Below, one piece after another: positions 3,574 through 14,180 of a stretch of DNA of 21,441 bases. The notes below the pieces were generated by a model, which made no database searches, was not told the DNA's origin, and saw nothing but the letters and a program-made list of their open reading frames with translations. Both the position numbers and the translations under genes were made by a program. The stretch is from the IMG/VR virus record IMGVR_UViG_2695420728_000017; one strand, 5' to 3'. The DNA comes from a virus. Its lineage: Duplodnaviria; Heunggongvirae; Uroviricota; Caudoviricetes. The stretch's first letter is position 1; each line of letters begins with the position of its first letter.

Positions 3574-3756
3574 TATTCCTCCCGGCCGGGATAGTGTATT
3601 AAATCAGATATGGAGTGGGCTGTAGTCCGGAAGCCTGAATGACACACGGGGACTACAGCCCAAGAAATGAAAAAAGGCCACGCAGTTGCGCAGCCTGATA
3701 AACCCTGGTTAAAATCCACACGATAACAACACAACAATATCAGTATCTCATGCTAT

Positions 3757-3782
3757 TGCCCGAACCCATTCGGGCATTTTTT
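3757..3782 (+). terminator. intrinsic terminator, plus strand only
   Basis: Perfect 8-bp stem TGCCCGAA/TTCGGGCA with CCCA loop followed by TTTTTT. The minus-strand version has no U-tract. Confidence 0.5.
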
Positions 3783-3787
3783 ACCCA

Positions 3788-3815
3788 TAAAAAATGCCCC
3801 TCCGGAGAGGGGCAT
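3788..3815 (-). terminator. intrinsic terminator, minus strand (between TerB operon and nanS-p)
   Basis: 9-bp stem ATGCCCCTC/GAGGGGCAT with 4-nt loop; on the minus strand it is followed by TTTTTTAT. Plus-strand side has only GTTTG. Confidence 0.55.
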
Positions 3816-3980
3816 GTTTGCATGCACATTCTTTTTCTTGCATGGTGCCGGGTGCCTCCCGGTGAATTCAGTATCAGCACCTGAATCCGCGATTATCCCA
3901 TATACCTGGTTGCTGATCGCCCCTCCGCACAGGGGGATTCACCATGCAGAAGTGTTTTTAATAAACAGCAAACAAAAAAA

Positions 3981-4745: not shown

Positions 4746-4822
4746 TGGCGCGTTGTAGTGGAGTCTAACCACTGACCGATTGCTTAGAAGGCAATTGCTC
4801 TGTCCGACTGAGCTAACAACGC
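4746..4822 (-). tRNA. argO: tRNA-Arg (anticodon TCT, decodes AGA/AGG); atypical T-loop
   Basis: 77-nt cloverleaf by hand: acceptor GCGTTGT/ACAACGC, D-arm GCTC/GAGC, anticodon stem ATTGC/GCAAT with loop CT-TCT-AA, T-stem AGTGG/CCACT, encoded CCA. T-loop is TTAGACT (A at position 56 instead of C). Third position in an Ile-Arg-Arg trio as in Stx-phage ileZ-argN-argO. Confidence 0.6.
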
Positions 4823-4835
4823 ATGATGCTGATAA

Positions 4836-4912
4836 TGGACCGCCATCGGGGACTTGAACCCCGCGCAGCCAGCTTCGAAGGCTGGCGCTCTGTCCCGATG
4901 AGCTAATAGCGG
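4836..4912 (-). tRNA. argN: tRNA-Arg (anticodon TCG, decodes CGA/CGG)
   Basis: 77-nt cloverleaf: acceptor CCGCTAT/ATGGCGG (one G-U), D-arm GCTC/GAGC, anticodon stem CCAGC/GCTGG with loop CT-TCG-AA, T-arm CGGGG-TTCAAGT-CCCCG, encoded CCA. Confidence 0.75.
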
Positions 4913-4921
4913 TATGTAATA

Positions 4922-4997
4922 TGGTGGCCCTTGCTGGATTTGAACCAGCGACCTGGCGATTATGAGTCGCTCGCTCTCACCACTGAGCTAAAGGGCC
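4922..4997 (-). tRNA. ileZ: tRNA-Ile2-like (anticodon CAT, lysidine type; close to ileX/ileY)
   Basis: 76-nt cloverleaf: acceptor GGCCCTT/AAGGGCC, D-arm GCTC-AGTGGTGA-GAGC, anticodon loop CT-CAT-AA, T-arm GCTGG-TTCAAAT-CCAGC, discriminator A, CCA. Near-identical in layout to E. coli ileX as I recall it. A CAT anticodon alone cannot exclude tRNA-Met. Confidence 0.8.
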
Positions 4998-7432: not shown

Positions 7433-8428
7433 TCAGGCCAGCACGCCTATTGCCAGCGCACGATCGATAAAACGAAATATCAGCTCCAGCTGGGAGCCAT
7501 ACTTCTCTTCAAATGCCACGGTATCCGCATGCAGCTCGTCGTGATGCTTTCTGCACAAAGGCAACACAAAGAGGTCATGCGCTTTTGTAGCCATTCCACC
7601 CTGACCGTGACCTATCAGGTGGTGGGGATCATCAGCAGGCTTTCCACAACATGCGCACGGCTGCGTCTTAACCCAGCGCGTGTACTTTTCATTAACCCAG
7701 CGGCGACGTTTTGGGCGTAACATAAAAGACTCCGGCGACTCCGGATCCACTTTCAGCGCCAGCACCTTTTTTGCCTTATCCTGGATGATGCTGGTGGCAG
7801 GAACCGAAGGCACAAGGTCACTTTCCCGGGTGACAGACGGCACAACAGGCTTTGGTAATCTCAGTGCCTTACGGGCTGCACTTTCCGGTAAGACATCCGC
7901 CAGGTCATTACGAATCAGCCACCAGCACAGTTCCGGCATTGTCACAACGTGACTATCATCAAAACCGAGATCCCGACGCACAACAGACAACACCCAGCGG
8001 GCACAGTTATCCGTTGCCATTGATTCCAGTCGTTCCGTGAACTGATCGCGCAGCTGGTTATCGCAGTGCCAGCACAGACGGATTGCGCCCGGCGCGTGCC
8101 GCATTGTTGTCATGTTCTCGCTGTGCCAGTCGGAATGAGGCCACTGGCAGCCTTTTTCACGAAGTAACCAGCTTTCAAGACATTCCACGCCACCAGCACG
8201 ACGGATCACTGCCTCATTGCGGAACACGGCCCGAACGGCAGGATCATCCGCCAGCGGTTGTGATGCCGCCGGTACGGCACCACTGGCGAAAGATGAATAA
8301 CGTTCCGGCTCAGGCTCCAACAGGACACGCCCCTGCATAAACAGGGGCATCAGCTCTGAACCTGGTCTGAACAATACGATCCCCATACGCGGGGCAATTT
8401 CAGGGGTCAGTAGTGCTCTCACGGTCAC
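7433..8428 (-). CDS. DUF968-family prophage protein (YdfU-like; C-terminal Cys/His HNH-like motif)
   Basis: 331-aa ORF, GTG start abutting the upstream stop; C-terminus QPCACCGKPADDPHHLIGHGQGG…CRKHHDELH. Typical position between rusA/kilA-N and Q. Confidence 0.5.
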   Translation of the reverse strand: MTVRALLTPEIAPRMGIVLFRPGSELMPLFMQGRVLLEPEPERYSSFASGAVPAASQPLADDPAVRAVFRNEAVIRRAGGVECLESWLLREKGCQWPHSDWHSENMTTMRHAPGAIRLCWHCDNQLRDQFTERLESMATDNCARWVLSVVRRDLGFDDSHVVTMPELCWWLIRNDLADVLPESAARKALRLPKPVVPSVTRESDLVPSVPATSIIQDKAKKVLALKVDPESPESFMLRPKRRRWVNEKYTRWVKTQPCACCGKPADDPHHLIGHGQGGMATKAHDLFVLPLCRKHHDELHADTVAFEEKYGSQLELIFRFIDRALAIGVLA

Positions 8429-8429
8429 C

Positions 8430-9239
8430 TCAATGAACGGTATCGAGCAGCTTTAACAGCTCAGGGAATCGGGATTCGAAGAAATGCGGCTGCGTCTCGC
8501 GCGGATTTGCAGGACTGGTGATGTTCTTGCCGAACATGCAGCCTTTCGCGGTCAGCGACCAGAATTTTTTGATGTTGTTAATCGCGGTACGACTGTATCG
8601 TTCGCGTTGTTCAACGATCCCCAGCTTCGCCATCTGGTGATATGCCTGATTAGCTGTCAGGCGGATACCATACTGCTTCAGCAGTGCACTCAGTGACAGC
8701 GTGGGGCGGCTTGAGCCATCAGGCGCGTCAGCAGGAGCATCAATGGCATAGCGCGGTGCCAGATTCGGTAAGCCAACAGCCTCCTGGAGTTTCTGACAGG
8801 CACCAAGCACTGAAGAGTTAGACAGGTTTAATTCCCGGCGCATAAAGTCCAGCAGAATCACACCAGCCTGCATCTTGTCAGCAGCCTGTCCGGATAATTT
8901 TTCCGGTGCGCTGGTTACCATGTCGAAAGTACGGATCACCTTCAGATGGAATGACGGGCTGATCCACATTGCATAGGCATACACCAGTTCCTTGCAGACA
9001 TACGTTCCCCGTTCATTTCCCCCATGAATCACACTCACCGGGTCAACACCCAAATTCTGGGTGTTGGTCAATTCATGAACAAGCTCAACAGTTTGTTGGC
9101 TGGAAAGAAACTTTCCTGGCTCCTTGGTTCTGGCATTTGCACCAGATGCTACTGCTGCGCGATGTAGATCGTTCAGGCTGTAACGCCCATAAACATCACG
9201 ACGAACTTCAATACCATCAATGACCATCAGATTATTCAT
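8430..9239 (-). CDS. KilA-N domain protein (antirepressor-like)
   Basis: ATG at 9237-9239 with GAGGAG RBS 9 nt upstream; N-terminus MNNLMVIDGIEVRRDVYGRYSLNDLHRAAV…YVCKELVYAYAMWISPSFHLKV is KilA-N-like. Confidence 0.55.
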   Translation of the reverse strand: MNNLMVIDGIEVRRDVYGRYSLNDLHRAAVASGANARTKEPGKFLSSQQTVELVHELTNTQNLGVDPVSVIHGGNERGTYVCKELVYAYAMWISPSFHLKVIRTFDMVTSAPEKLSGQAADKMQAGVILLDFMRRELNLSNSSVLGACQKLQEAVGLPNLAPRYAIDAPADAPDGSSRPTLSLSALLKQYGIRLTANQAYHQMAKLGIVEQRERYSRTAINNIKKFWSLTAKGCMFGKNITSPANPRETQPHFFESRFPELLKLLDTVH

Positions 9240-10392: not shown

Positions 10393-11211
10393 TCACCCCC
10401 TGAATCCTGCCGGGATCTGGCTGTAGTCCACGTTGTCGTAACTGGCTTTGAAGTACGGGTCCTCGCGTCTGGCTGCAGATACCGCAGGAACTTCCCAGGA
10501 CTCTTCGAAATGACGATCCGGGCCAAAGAACGTGACAGCCTGTTTCACAAATTGTGTGCCGCTGTTACCCATCGCAGATACCCAGCCCGCGTAGCGTTTC
10601 ACACCTTCCAGCATGGTTTCGGGTTTTACCCCCTCATTCAAACGGGCTTTCCAGGCTTTGAAGGCTGCAGATTTTGAATTGCCACCAGCACGTTTGGGGT
10701 ATGCCAGCCATGCCTGCTCAAACTCCGGAGAGTATTCCGGTCGGTTTGAACGAACTCGCACAGACTCATCAGCAGATGCACCAACAGCTATTGGTTCATT
10801 GACTGGTTCTTTGACTGGTTCAAAAGAGTGACTGGTTCTGGGTGAATCTCCTGCACCACCCCCTGGTGCAACTCCTGCACTACCTGGTGAATTTGCTGCA
10901 CCAGATAGTGAATTATTTGCACTACCCCCTAGTGAATCTCCTGCACCATCAAGATGAAGGAGATAGATATTACTTGAGTTACCTTTTTCACCTTTCCGGG
11001 TGACTTTTTTTACCAGTCCGGAATCACAAAGAGCCGCAATATGATTCATCACAGAACGTTTGCTAATCTCGCACTGGTCAGCAATATGCTGGTAGCTGGG
11101 CCAGCACTCACCCTGATCGCTGGCATTATCAGCCAGCTTGATCAGAACCAGTTTTCGCAATGGATTACCCACTCGAATTTTCATCGCTTTAACCATCAGC
11201 TCCATACTCAT
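10393..11211 (-). CDS. replication initiator, lambda O-like (N-terminal HTH, Gly/Ser/Pro linker encoded by iterons)
   Basis: 272 aa; N-terminal HTH (…SYQHIADQCEISKRSVMNHIAALCDSGLV…); the central linker GDSLGGSANNSLSGAANSPGSAGVAPGGGAGDSP is encoded by direct DNA repeats, as for the lambda O gene that contains ori. Confidence 0.55.
   Translation of the reverse strand: MSMELMVKAMKIRVGNPLRKLVLIKLADNASDQGECWPSYQHIADQCEISKRSVMNHIAALCDSGLVKKVTRKGEKGNSSNIYLLHLDGAGDSLGGSANNSLSGAANSPGSAGVAPGGGAGDSPRTSHSFEPVKEPVNEPIAVGASADESVRVRSNRPEYSPEFEQAWLAYPKRAGGNSKSAAFKAWKARLNEGVKPETMLEGVKRYAGWVSAMGNSGTQFVKQAVTFFGPDRHFEESWEVPAVSAARREDPYFKASYDNVDYSQIPAGFRG
10841..10950. repeat. five imperfect ~21-bp direct repeats with internal dyad symmetry (candidate origin iterons), inside the O-like gene
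   Basis: Units about GGTGAATCTCCTGCACCA at 10841-10862, 10864-10884, 10885-10907, 10908-10929, 10930-10950; e.g. TGGTGCA-ACTCC-TGCACTA. A second set TGACTGGTTC x3 lies at 10801-10838. Confidence 0.45.
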
Positions 11212-11432
11212 GCTGCACCTCCGAGATGCTTCATGTTTTTTCCGGAGCGAAAGGCTATAAGCGGCATACTGACGCGGTAATTACGGCCAAGCGGTTCACA
11301 AATCACCTTCTGACATTCACGGTCAACCAGGCTAACACGTAGAACATGCCCTGCAGGTGTGGTGTACCACTGACCCGGACGAGGACAACGGAAAGTCTGA
11401 TTGGTAAACCGTTTGAAAATATTCCGGATCAT
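11208..11432 (-). CDS. hypothetical protein (74 aa)
   Basis: Its ATG overlaps the Rha stop (ATGA at 11429-11432) and its stop overlaps the O-like ATG (ATGA at 11208-11211). No family recognised. Confidence 0.4.
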   Translation of the reverse strand: MIRNIFKRFTNQTFRCPRPGQWYTTPAGHVLRVSLVDRECQKVICEPLGRNYRVSMPLIAFRSGKNMKHLGGAA

Positions 11433-11986
11433 TTGCGCCCCCTTACCTCTGAAGGGTTCAGCGACAAATTTATGAGGCAGGCCAGCGCCGAAGCATCATT
11501 AATATAATCATATAAGCTAACAGCCAGCGGAGATTCAGCTTTTGCCAACATAGGATAAAGCTGCTGCAGCCAGACCTTGTGGATTACCGACAGGTGGGAG
11601 TAAAGCACGCTGGCGTTATCTGCGGCATCGCTCAGCGTGGATGGCTTTGAAAGCAGTTTTTCCATCTGGTTAAAGGCATTGATGTATGCCTCTTTGAACC
11701 GGGCAGCACGTTTACCCGTGAAACCCATAGCAAGAAACGCAAAACCGTCTCGTGTGATTTGATAGCAAGGGAGCTTGCGTGTACCACCGTTCGGTTGATT
11801 TACCGAAATCGATGTCTCCGCAAAATTGCGGGCACAAAACTCAGGGGAACAATCCAGAGTGCGGATCTTTTTCAGCACATCGTCGTGACGCTTGGAGAAG
11901 AAGTTGGCAACAGCCAAAGAAGTGGTAACGGCCTGGCCGTTGTCAATGGTGATTTCAGGTTGAGTGAGGGCTTGGATCGTAGCCAT
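11429..11986 (-). CDS. phage regulatory protein Rha
   Basis: ATG at 11984-11986 with GGAGG 8 nt upstream; MATIQALTQPEITIDNGQAVTTSLAVANFFSKRHDDVLKKI…KLPCYQITRDGFAFLAMGFTGKRAARFKEAYINAFNQME is a canonical Rha N-terminal domain (185 aa). Confidence 0.7.
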   Translation of the reverse strand: MATIQALTQPEITIDNGQAVTTSLAVANFFSKRHDDVLKKIRTLDCSPEFCARNFAETSISVNQPNGGTRKLPCYQITRDGFAFLAMGFTGKRAARFKEAYINAFNQMEKLLSKPSTLSDAADNASVLYSHLSVIHKVWLQQLYPMLAKAESPLAVSLYDYINDASALACLINLSLNPSEVRGRK

Positions 11987-12589
11987 GATGGCAGCCTCCG
12001 TTGACAGTGAAAAACTTCCACCACCGGAAACGCCAATTTCACTGGTGGTGAACTGGACGGGGTTGGCGTAACCGGCGTCAACGGAGACCGGCGCACCTTT
12101 CGGTGCCCCCGCCCAGCCCACCATAATCTGGATGTGAGCAAATGCGGACGATAAAAAAGACGCTGGCGCGTCATACATCGCCGTTGACAATTTCAGGACG
12201 CCAATCCCGGCACCCGCTTTATAAGGTGCCTGAACAGTGTAACGTCCCGGAATTGCAGAGTCAATATGCTGGTGGTCCTTCACACTCAACAAAATCACGC
12301 CTGAATTTCCACAAAGGACTAAAGCACTCATGCGGGTAGTCTTTGCGAAGATAGATAACGCGCTGTGTTTCTGGCTCCCAACGAATAACATGAACATAAA
12401 GTCCTCTTCCGTCACGAAACCAGCGGTTAAGTTCCTGCACAACTCGCCCCCCACAGTCAGGTAAAGTTCTCTGTGGTTACTTACAGCCAGGTGATTTGGT
12501 AATCTGCATTCATGCCGTAACAACAGGTGTGCAGCGACACTGACCACCAGCTGTTGCGACAAACGGTTATTTGCCGTTAAACTGTTCAT
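11987..12589 (-). CDS. unassigned 201-codon open frame, in frame with and directly upstream of Rha (possible separate gene or N-terminal extension)
   Basis: ATG at 12587-12589 overlaps the stop of the upstream YdaT-like gene (ATGA) and has GGAGA about 10 nt upstream. The frame stays open for 201 codons into the Rha ATG while the other two minus frames are full of stops (hand translation). No family recognised; composition is unusual. Confidence 0.3.
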
Positions 12590-13137
12590 GCGTTAGTTTC
12601 TCCACAGACACAAAACGCCACGACGCCCGGAGCTGCACACTCGCGGGCGTTACTCTTTTCTGGAGCGCAGAAGATTTTGTAGACCAGTGCTGCATGCTCC
12701 TGGAGCTTCGAAATTGACAGATACAACTCATCATTAATTGCTGTCTGCTCGTGTGGCTCCACTACCCCATCTTCGATTGCCGAACGAATCTGCTTTGAGT
12801 AACTCCCGATCTGTTCGATGACTTCCAGCAGGCGCTGGTTTATATCGGCGTTCTCTACTTCCTCAATTTCTGGAAGTGATACAAACACCCCACCAGCAGA
12901 CTGTGCGACAGCATCCGCAATGTGGTGAGTACCAGCCGCACGCTGTAAAACCATTGCCCATCCCAACGGAAAAAACTGATCGCCATCGGCACGAAGGCGG
13001 TTGAATAAAGCGTTCTCTGTTACATCCAGCCACTCAGCAGCTTCAGCGTAACCCCCCGGCAACGCCGCGATAGTTTTTCTGACAGCTTTCACGTACCACT
13101 CAGGCTGTTTTTCCACTTTCCAGTGATGCTTACCCAC
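12586..13137 (-). CDS. YdaT-like / phage CII-type regulatory protein
   Basis: 183-aa ORF (GTG start) immediately after the Cro-like gene, the position and size class of ydaT in Rac-type immunity regions. Family call is from memory only. Confidence 0.4.
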   Translation of the reverse strand: MGKHHWKVEKQPEWYVKAVRKTIAALPGGYAEAAEWLDVTENALFNRLRADGDQFFPLGWAMVLQRAAGTHHIADAVAQSAGGVFVSLPEIEEVENADINQRLLEVIEQIGSYSKQIRSAIEDGVVEPHEQTAINDELYLSISKLQEHAALVYKIFCAPEKSNARECAAPGVVAFCVCGETNA

Positions 13138-13487: not shown

Positions 13488-14180
13488 ATGAACATAGGAA
13501 ATCGAGTCAGACAACTTCGCCAGGCGAAGAACATGAAAATCGCCGATCTCGCTGAAGCAATAGGAGTGGATGCGGCGAATATCTCGCGCCTCGAAACAGG
13601 TAAGCAGAAACAATTCACTGAACAAGCCCTGAGTAATATTGCCAGGAGCTTAGGTGTTGATATTGCTGATCTCTTTACCTCAGACTTCAAAAGTAATACT
13701 GTATGTAAAAACAGTATTAGTGAGGATATTGCGCAGGTGAAGGATGTATTCCGTATTGAAATGCTGGATATCAGTGCCAGTGCGGGAAATGGCCTTATCC
13801 AGGGCGGAGATGTCATTGATGTGATTCATGCCATTGAATACAGAACTGATAATGCTGTATCGATGTTTGGCGGACGGCCAGCAAATCACATTAAAGTTAT
13901 CAACGTTCGTGGGGACAGTATGTGTCCAACCATTGAGCCAGGAGATCTCATCTTCGTTGATGTCAGTATCAATCAGTTTGATGGAGATGGTATCTATGTA
14001 TTTGGTTTTGATGATAAAATTTATGTCAAACGACTGCAAATGATACCTGACAAACTACTGGTGATTTCTGATAACCAGATTTATCGTGAATGGGGAATTA
14101 CCAGCGAAAATGAACACCGGTTTATGGTCTTTGGAAAGGTCTTAATCAGCCAGTCACAAACCCTTAAGCGACACAATTAA
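13488..14180 (+). CDS. CI-like prophage repressor (N-terminal HTH plus C-terminal S24/LexA-type autopeptidase)
   Basis: 230 aa; HTH KIADLAEAIGVDAANISRLETGK; peptidase block GDSMCPTIEPGDLIFVD with downstream Lys (KIYVKRL), i.e. the Ser-Lys dyad of RecA-stimulated self-cleaving repressors. Confidence 0.85.
   Translation: MNIGNRVRQLRQAKNMKIADLAEAIGVDAANISRLETGKQKQFTEQALSNIARSLGVDIADLFTSDFKSNTVCKNSISEDIAQVKDVFRIEMLDISASAGNGLIQGGDVIDVIHAIEYRTDNAVSMFGGRPANHIKVINVRGDSMCPTIEPGDLIFVDVSINQFDGDGIYVFGFDDKIYVKRLQMIPDKLLVISDNQIYREWGITSENEHRFMVFGKVLISQSQTLKRHN

Follow-up and report, generated by a model that had tools for sequence, protein, structure and literature searches.

An open reading frame across an antisense-RNA-type immunity switch upstream of the prophage gene Rha

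What keeps a reading frame open for 201 codons upstream of a gene that has its own ribosome-binding site (RBS) and start codon? The question is raised by positions 11987-12589 (minus strand) of IMG/VR record IMGVR_UViG_2695420728_000017, a viral sequence of 21,441 nucleotides (nt) analysed here at full length as the window, in which this segment lies directly upstream of, and in frame with, the Rha gene. A sequence-only reading of the window had offered three options: a new gene whose translation continues into Rha, a Rha with two starts and an extension at its N-terminus, or the relic of a deleted gene. We consider it likely that the 603 bases upstream of the Rha ATG are an RNA switch of the P1 immI, P4 immunity and Gifsy-1 IsrK type together with one small gene, and that the frame is kept open across all of it.

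The frame upstream of Rha and the RNA switch that it crosses

The long open reading frame (ORF), whose frame we call frame 0, starts at an ATG and comprises 386 codons, the last 185 of which are Rha. In the 201 codons upstream of the Rha ATG, frame 0 contained no stop, the remaining minus-strand frames contained 12 and 8, and the longest plus-strand ORF was 81 amino acids (aa). When the segment was shuffled by mononucleotide, a frame of this length stayed open about once in 10,000 trials (about 1e-4), so its openness exceeds chance expectation. The long-ORF ATG (12589) overlaps the TGA stop of the preceding gene (gcATGAac) with a GGAGA 9 nt to its 5' side, and Rha has its own GGAGG (11999-11995) and ATG (11986-11984). 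The short form of Rha has the N-terminal Rha domain that defines the family: in the 185-aa protein, PF09669 covers residues 21-110, equivalent to 222-311 in long-ORF numbering, and TIGR02681 covers residues 12-114, so that both models begin within the short form. In these respects the sequence-only reading was borne out. Its view of the other two minus frames as stop-rich held for the counts and missed a real 59-codon gene of the DUF4222 family in one of them, and the upstream gene that it had called YdaT-like is YmfL / Phage_CP76 (CII-like) according to Pfam, NCBIfam and RefSeq.

The segment had also been thought to match nothing recognisable; it matched Pfam Phage_ASH and the Rfam families isrK and C4. 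A near-consensus sigma-70 promoter sits 325 nt inside the long ORF, with its -10 box ending 7 nt before the first base of the isrK match. The isrK element combines the covariance match, the 5' promoter and the 3' Rho-independent terminator that characterize IsrK, seqA and c4-a1b1 elements (RF01394, RF03163). The C4 element folded with a minimum free energy of -52.2 kcal/mol (z = -5.07 versus shuffles) into a shape identical to the family structure, with a long closing stem and two internal hairpins. For isrK and the downstream target, fold stability did not significantly exceed that of shuffles (z = -1.17 and -1.66, respectively), and support for these two parts therefore comes from Rfam and from co-variation. 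Two short sites in C4, a' and b', are exactly complementary to sites on the same transcript both upstream, within isrK, and downstream, over the Rha RBS. This a1b1 / a'b' / a2b2 layout is that of P1 immI and of P4 seqA-CI-seqC. Frame 0 thus passes through isrK, C4 and a2/b2 and then into Rha, whose own Shine-Dalgarno (SD) sequence is the b2 target; a further in-frame ATG within C4 is separated from Rha by 46 codons without a stop. We regard the identity of both the RNA switch and the DUF4222 gene as close to certain.

Comparison with other phages showed the switch to be a variable module. Close relatives were found in phages SfV, 2H10, Ayreon and cdtI, in Stx2c phages and in Salmonella phage 118970_sal3, and more distant ones in Hafnia phage yong2 and Gifsy-1. 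In all relatives compared isrK was followed by C4, and in their alignment the b and a sites changed together in all three places. To these phage-record relatives we added 120 IMG/VR loci retrieved with a C4 sequence pattern that is blind to reading frame, giving 95 modules for the analysis of co-variation. These carried 43 distinct b' loops, each matching its own b1 and b2 (mean match length 6.9 nt and 8.3 nt, respectively, compared with 4.4 nt for partners of other specificity), and several a' variants, each with matched a1 and a2. From co-variation over 43 loop types we conclude that the RNA switch is genuine and that its evolution is that of a specificity system.

Several viral contigs (L044, with three matches 656 nt apart, L088, L111 and L028) carried tandem isrK-C4-Rha/Bro modules, two to three per contig, with b' loops that were all different; these could be stacked immunity specificities. 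In L028 the first tandem module also follows a DUF4222 gene. A 20-nt junction, GAGGCTGCCATCATGGCTAC, comprising the SD, spacer, ATG and first codons (window 11978-12000), was kept from P4 (L133) to the window and was also present in L001 and L004. The genes that follow it differ (Rha in the window, an ORF of ~77 aa in SfV and yong2, kil in P4), and the junction looks like a recombination boundary of the module.

Table 1. Features of the segment upstream of Rha and its surroundings (window coordinates; all on the minus strand)
Feature	Position	Strand	Basis
Rha short form, 185 aa, putative regulated gene	11429..11986	-	PF09669, TIGR02681; own GGAGG
Long eta-like ORF, 386 codons, frame 0, ending as Rha	11429..12589	-	ORF list; ATGA overlap and SD-like GGAGA; 0 stops in 41 relatives; P4 eta layout
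ymfL, CII-like regulator gene; TGA stop 12588-12586	12586..13137	-	Pfam Phage_CP76; NCBIfam YmfL equivalog, 173 bits; RefSeq 'protein YmfL'
Spacer between ymfL and DUF4222 (145 nt)	12441..12585	-	Open in frame 0 only
DUF4222 gene, 59 aa, GTG start, frame +2 relative to long ORF	12261..12440	-	PF13973, E = 9e-14; phrog_1343, E = 2e-36; RefSeq WP_001379286.1
Sigma-70 promoter, TTGACT-17-TACACT, near-consensus; predicted start ~12229	12264-12236	-	Promoter scan; kept in relatives
IsrK/seqA-like RNA	12229-12153	-	Rfam RF01394, 62.2 bits (gathering score 50)
a1, TTGGCGT, in isrK	12204-12198	-	Exact pairing with a', 7 nt
b1, GTCAACGG, in isrK	12188-12181	-	Exact pairing with b', 8 nt
Intrinsic terminator of isrK, stem followed by T run	12172-12159	-	Terminator scan
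C4/CI-type antisense RNA	12128-12041	-	Rfam RF01695, 81.4 bits (gathering score 45), model positions 1-87 of 87
In-frame ATG homologous to Gifsy-1 orf45 start (MVGWAGAPKG...)	12122..12124	-	Alignment and ORF comparison with Gifsy-1
C4 loop b', CTCCGTTGAC	12086-12077	-	Complementary to b1 and b2
C4 site a', ACGCCAA	12069-12063	-	Complementary to TTGGCGT, 7 nt
Downstream C4 target region (a2 and b2)	11995..12036	-	Exact complementarity; b2 covers SD GGAGG 11999-11995
a2, TTGGCGT, downstream target	12036-12030	-	Exact pairing with a', 7 nt
b2, GTCAACGGAG, includes Rha SD	12005-11996	-	Exact pairing with b', 10 nt
C-rich, G-poor transcript stretch, candidate Rho loading site	11881..12000	-	Composition scan; C 0.34-0.36, G 0.19-0.20

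Selection on the open frame and on its product

We examined whether the openness of frame 0 is maintained by selection. Among 41 relatives (37 unique) of the whole segment, frame 0 had no stop, and frames 1 and 2 had 28 and 23 distinct stop sites, of which 19 in each were polymorphic; all indels were of 3 or 6 nt. The sequence-only reading had looked to homologous prophages for stops or indels in this segment: the close lineage had none that breaks the frame, and distant modules such as that of Gifsy-1 do close it. The 41 relatives had first been picked by requiring 150 or more open codons, a circular criterion; judged by homology search, the sole relative left out in this way was a diverged one (L074), and the frame comparison was repeated on samples retrieved with the frame-independent C4 pattern. 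Of 44 clusters of IMG/VR loci, 21 had the whole module open in frame 0, and only 2 had it open in each of the other frames. A second, independent sample, with one genome for each species (63 clusters), had a long ORF, defined as at least 50 codons upstream and at least 80 downstream, in frame 0 in 18 clusters, compared with 1 and 0 in the others. Upstream openness was associated with in-frame downstream fusion in both samples (21/4/5/14 for the IMG/VR clusters and 18/10/9/26 for the one-per-species sample). The long ORF had its first ATG on or beside the stop of the preceding gene in six or more unrelated upstream contexts, mostly with an SD-like motif.

The DUF4222 gene is crossed by the long ORF in another frame. 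The DUF4222 codons able to create a frame-0 stop (positions 4, 18, 28 and 51) ended in T or C in every lineage, including a 48%-identical Hafnia homologue, and the common codons CTG and GTG were never used at these positions. For a fixed protein sequence and the codon usage of E. coli, the +1 frame across DUF4222 would be open with a probability of 0.04 (0.17 for yong2). Stop sites, indels, DUF4222 codons and the two cluster samples all pointed to selection rather than chance.

A dN/dS-type comparison across relatives, as suggested by the sequence-only reading, asked whether selection acts on the product. Between E. coli and Salmonella lineages (~84% identity), the ratio of nonsynonymous to synonymous variation (pN/pS) over DUF4222 was 0.13-0.15 (0.14) in the gene's own frame and ~2 in frame 0 over the same bases, and the variation fell on the second codon position of frame 0, equivalent to the third position in the DUF4222 frame. 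DUF4222 therefore combines its profile match with purifying selection in its own frame, and frame 0 showed no purifying selection there. In the RNA parts, variable columns per codon position numbered 14/16/13 and 34/35/38, without three-base periodicity. The spacer between ymfL and DUF4222 likewise lacked periodicity (13/16/17), and its pN/pS was 0.4-0.5 in frame 0 and in frame +2 alike, so this measure does not discriminate and we make no claim of coding or non-coding status for the spacer. Its sole indel among relatives was of 6 nt.

These results bear directly on the 'Ash' annotation of this region. Pfam PF10554 (Phage_ASH) matched residues 117-212 of the 386-aa ORF (E = 1.9e-20, profile positions 1-106 of 107), that is nt 11954-12241, which coincide with isrK, C4 and the SD target. 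Similar matches were obtained in SfV orf37, in the yong2 'Ash family protein' and in the 'cI' ORF of P4. The profile match thus holds, and selection on amino acids of the 'Ash' region was not seen by codon periodicity between the E. coli and Salmonella lineages; conservation tracked RNA pairing instead. We conclude that 'Ash' is the frame-0 translation of isrK, C4 and target and not an independently folding domain. The identification of Ash with the P4 epsilon antirepressor, stated in a preprint (10.1101/2021.03.30.437493), was dropped after a scan of both P4 ORFs: PF10554 matched the obsolete 'cI' ORF (8168-8584, minus strand), which lies over the CI RNA (Rfam C4 at 8420-8507), and epsilon (7888-8175, minus strand) matched PF25738 and not PF10554.

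Of the readings on which the frame codes for something, then, a functional protein domain is unlikely in general, and a genuine 'Ash' domain fused to Rha and acting at the protein level, whether formed by all 201 codons or at least by residues 117-201, is very improbable. The strength of the PF10554 match, the PHROG families phrog_821 and phrog_3960 that span the extension, the RefSeq annotation of Rha proteins of 386 or 300 aa and the use of 'Rha/Ash domain proteins' in the literature (10.1101/2021.11.24.469858) would all suit such a domain. However, the match overlies isrK, C4 and the SD target here and the CI RNA in P4, its conservation follows three-way co-variation, the isrK and C4 parts of 'Ash' lie in different frames in Gifsy-1, the same 'domain' precedes genes as unrelated as Rha, the 77-aa ORF of SfV and yong2, and kil, and NCBIfam has no 'Ash' model. 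The same evidence leaves little room for a novel gene read through into Rha, since the codons are taken up by DUF4222, a promoter, two Rfam RNAs and their targets, and frame-0 amino acids are not under purifying selection. We give almost no credence to a decayed remnant of a gene once fused to Rha or deleted beside it. The leader translation is indeed unlike a protein, yet a decaying gene would gather stops and frameshifts, of which the 41 relatives had none, and the region is highly organised, conserved and co-varying, with a promoter, a terminator, members of two RNA families and a small gene kept by purifying selection packed into it.

More serious is the possibility that the RNA switch is real and the long frame is never translated, its openness being a passive by-product of a G+C-rich conserved RNA, a stop-free +1 frame of DUF4222, and common descent or recombination of open cassettes. 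Several observations fit such passive openness and weigh against selection for translation. Frame-0 amino acids are unconstrained, and the spacer (12585-12441) has no coding signature in any frame. Only ~30-50% of module lineages have the long ORF and ~50-70% lack it, many of them, including Gifsy-1, having only a short ORF; since the long ORF is not universal, the switch can work without it. L074 carries one frame-0 stop inside DUF4222, with an ATG 9 nt later. The risky DUF4222 codons differ by T/C transitions only, which are the commonest changes anyway, and a per-lineage probability of 0.04-0.17 for an open +1 frame is not negligible. The sequences compared are related, and much of their variation is exchange of cassettes between modules that were already open, so the contrasts in stop counts suggest more independent events than there were; identity among close E. 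coli relatives is 97-100% over the upstream 370 nt, which leaves few independent trials. Translation through the switch also requires ribosomes to override the IsrK intrinsic terminator, which is an assumption of our model. On the other side, two independent samples each had frame 0 open about ten times as often as the control frames, the freedom of frame 0 from stops was maintained within one lineage with many specificity cassettes while the other frames accumulated polymorphic stop sites, all indels were multiples of 3, six or more unrelated contexts had the start codon on the upstream stop, mostly together with an SD, and upstream openness and in-frame fusion occurred together. In addition, P4 eta was shown experimentally to be translated and needed, according to PMC10111431. 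Taken together, we judge passive openness unlikely and the frame probably kept open because it is translated. By analogy with P4, the selected property would be the translatability of the frame and not its product. The earlier suggestion of an extended Rha with a dual start therefore survives in part: the frame is open, its ATG is coupled to the upstream stop and the layout is that of P4 eta/kil, while what is likely selected is translation through the switch, with no extra protein domain.

In six further loci (L026, L038, L053, L084 (P4-like) and L017, L059), the SD-proximal ATG after C4 (at +137 or +140) was out of frame with the long ORF, and frame 0 stayed open for 147-416 codons across the out-of-frame 75-81-aa gene, continuing in L017 into integrase-like sequence. 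Because frame 0 remains open in these loci, openness beyond the module needs no in-frame fusion.

Proposed mechanism, gene context and annotation

We propose that the internal promoter starts an IsrK/seqA-like RNA that would end at the intrinsic terminator, with read-through yielding a C4/CI-like RNA. In the lysogen, C4 from this constitutive promoter would block translation of Rha at its SD, as in P1, P4 and Gifsy-1, and the untranslated RNA would then end early, probably through Rho acting at the C-rich stretch. With the C4-blocked RNA untranslated and terminated, Rha and the downstream replication genes would stay off. In the C4 family the mature RNA is released from a longer transcript by RNase P and other enzymes and represses the following gene. 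The long-frame ATG, coupled to the ymfL stop and upstream of the internal promoter, would be present only on transcripts from the early (cro-ymfL) promoter. After induction, ribosomes from this ymfL-coupled start may cross DUF4222 (in the other frame), the IsrK terminator, C4 and the target and enter Rha. Such frame-0 translation would keep terminator, C4 and target unfolded and Rho off, and early transcription could thereby continue through Rha to the replication genes whether or not C4 is present. An extended Rha of 386 aa would be a by-product or minor isoform. The functional steps of this scheme are modelled on P4, P1 and Gifsy-1, and both the prevention of termination by long-frame translation and the insensitivity to immunity are suggested by those systems.

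The C-rich stretch was the strongest C>G region within 12640-11120 (C/G ~1.8) and begins at the Rha start; Rho might load there when that start is untranslated, in analogy to P4 timm.

Gene order places the switch in the path of early transcription. From cI (13488-14180, plus strand) the window continues with a cro-like gene, ymfL, the module, Rha, a 74-aa ORF and a replication gene, and because of this order early transcription has to pass through the switch before it arrives at the replication gene, like transcription of the P4 left operon. The 74-aa ORF (11208-11432, minus strand; phrog_1153) has ATGA overlaps with both the Rha stop and the replication-gene start. The PHROG matches of Rha were to anti-repressors and Rha-like regulators. 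If the comparison holds, the module would give a lambdoid prophage a second immunity layer, based on RNA and diversified into many specificity types, ahead of its antirepressor-like gene and its replication genes, and would bear on prophage induction and on superinfection exclusion among Stx-type phages.

The DUF4222 gene has a close physical association with the switch: its TGA stop (12261-12263) lies inside the -35 box (12259-12264) of the isrK promoter, and its homologues in phages of E. coli, Salmonella and Hafnia lie equally far from the module, which suggests that DUF4222 travels with the RNA switch. NCBIfam had no model matching DUF4222 or the 201-aa leader.

How far the scheme extends is a separate question. 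We find the arguments evenly balanced for the broader proposal that translation through the switch serves many lambdoid prophages of Enterobacterales, the present one among them, as a means to make early transcripts blind to their own antisense-RNA immunity. If true, selection on the same 600 bases must satisfy two structured RNAs with evolving loops (more than 43 types), a stop-free frame and, in the window, also the codon choice of the whole DUF4222 gene, and the 386-aa and 231-aa extended forms of Rha could be real isoforms with altered activity.

The region was matched in 3085 of 5426 complete E. coli genomes, and its annotation varies. Two RefSeq E. coli chromosomes that are identical to the window (L131 and L132) have the same DNA annotated in two ways: in one, as a 386-aa Rha (WP_001087312.1) without DUF4222, and in the other as a 300-aa Rha that starts inside DUF4222 (WP_106377763.1) together with DUF4222 (WP_001379286.1). 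Neither RefSeq annotation includes an RNA feature near Rha. 'Rha/Ash' proteins occur in Stx and Eru phages and are listed in the Stx phage literature as of unknown function (10.1101/2021.11.24.469858), and a survey of P4-like satellites took PF10554 as the epsilon profile (10.1101/2021.03.30.437493); this marker detects the immunity-RNA region rather than epsilon. The 'Ash' domain of Pfam and PHROG is really a translated RNA switch, and the value of this result is mainly the correction of annotation.

Elsewhere in the window, Rfam identified the anti-GcvB small RNA (sRNA) AgvB (3721-3782, plus strand; 96 bits), the adjoining sRNA STnc100 on the opposite strand (3783-3976, minus strand; 143 bits) and three transfer RNA (tRNA) genes (4749-4997, minus strand). 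AgvB, STnc100 and tRNAs are typical cargo of enterohaemorrhagic E. coli (EHEC)/Stx-type lambdoid prophages.

Comparison with known systems

Rha occupies the position of P4 kil, Gifsy-1 anrP and P1 icd-ant, and the switch before it has counterparts in all three systems. The immI region of P1 and P7 resembles the window in that C4 RNA derives from the same transcript that it regulates (in the window, as judged from sequence), the a'/b' sites pair with a target over the RBS of the next gene, the product is an antirepressor in P1 and the antirepressor-like Rha here, and specificity variants occur, as between P1 and P7. P1 differs in having the small gene icd between c4 and ant, in being a plasmid prophage and in the control of its operon by C1. 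The Ant1 and Ant2 proteins of P1 arise from in-frame starts. PMC8198154 describes both forms of Ant and, on Citron & Schuster 1990, the block of icd/ant expression by C4.

The isrK-orf45-anrP locus of Gifsy-1 in Salmonella (PMC4825925) shares with the window an Rfam isrK element with its own promoter (PisrK, the counterpart of promoter 12264-12236) and terminator, followed by a C4-like RNA (STnc1160) and an antirepressor-like gene. Hershko-Shalev et al. 2016 (PMC4825925) found that orf45 is translated and that expression of the antirepressor-like AnrP depends on it. orf45 starts at the conserved ATGGTGGGG and runs in the same frame over the C4-like RNA as the long ORF does in the window. However, a stop lies two codons before the orf45 ATG and the orf45 stop overlaps the anrP ATG in another frame, whereas the window has no stop on either side; the Gifsy-1 module follows antQ in the late region and not in an early operon, and AnrP is not a Rha-family protein. 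Hfq binding by IsrK and activation of a long transcript in trans have also been reported in Gifsy-1 (PMC4825925).

The closest parallel is P4. According to the account of P4 immunity in PMC10111431 (on Forti et al. 1999), a constitutive promoter inside eta yields a transcript that is terminated via CI/seqA interactions and gives CI. The same account describes Kil as a truncated form of Eta, full-length Eta being translated only from an upstream promoter, coupled to an upstream alpA homologue, and preventing termination by its translation. We found that the start of eta (ORF 8168-8767, 199 aa), at ATGATGATG, overlaps the stop of orf88 and that the ORF runs across an isrK-like element (seqA), CI and seqC to end in frame as the 65-aa kil. 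P4 and the window therefore share an internal constitutive promoter (PLE in P4), an IsrK/seqA-like RNA, a C4/CI RNA and a downstream target in that order; a long ORF whose ATG overlaps the upstream stop 5' of this promoter, and which spans the RNAs and ends in the first immunity-controlled gene, itself equipped with an RBS; the conserved junction ...EAAIMAT... (GAGGCTGCCATCATGGCTAC); and replication genes downstream in the same operon. They differ in the nested gene (Rha, 185 aa, or kil, 65 aa), in the host element (a lambdoid e14/SfV-like prophage with cI, cro and ymfL, or a satellite), in the extra sequence that P4 has between seqA and CI, and in the length of frame upstream of the nested gene, which is 201 codons in the window, where the long ORF also crosses the complete DUF4222 gene and the 145-nt spacer, and ~134 in P4. 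That translation prevents termination was shown in P4 and is proposed by analogy for the window. CI/seqA homologues inside 'Bro network' genes of satellites have already been noted (PMC10111431). On this comparison, the conserved open frame would be a case of the P4 eta mechanism outside satellites, under overlapping constraints from RNA, ORF and a gene in another frame. The window system is of the same kind as P4 eta/kil with its CI RNA, and what differs is the lambdoid host, the nested Rha and the DUF4222 gene that the frame crosses.

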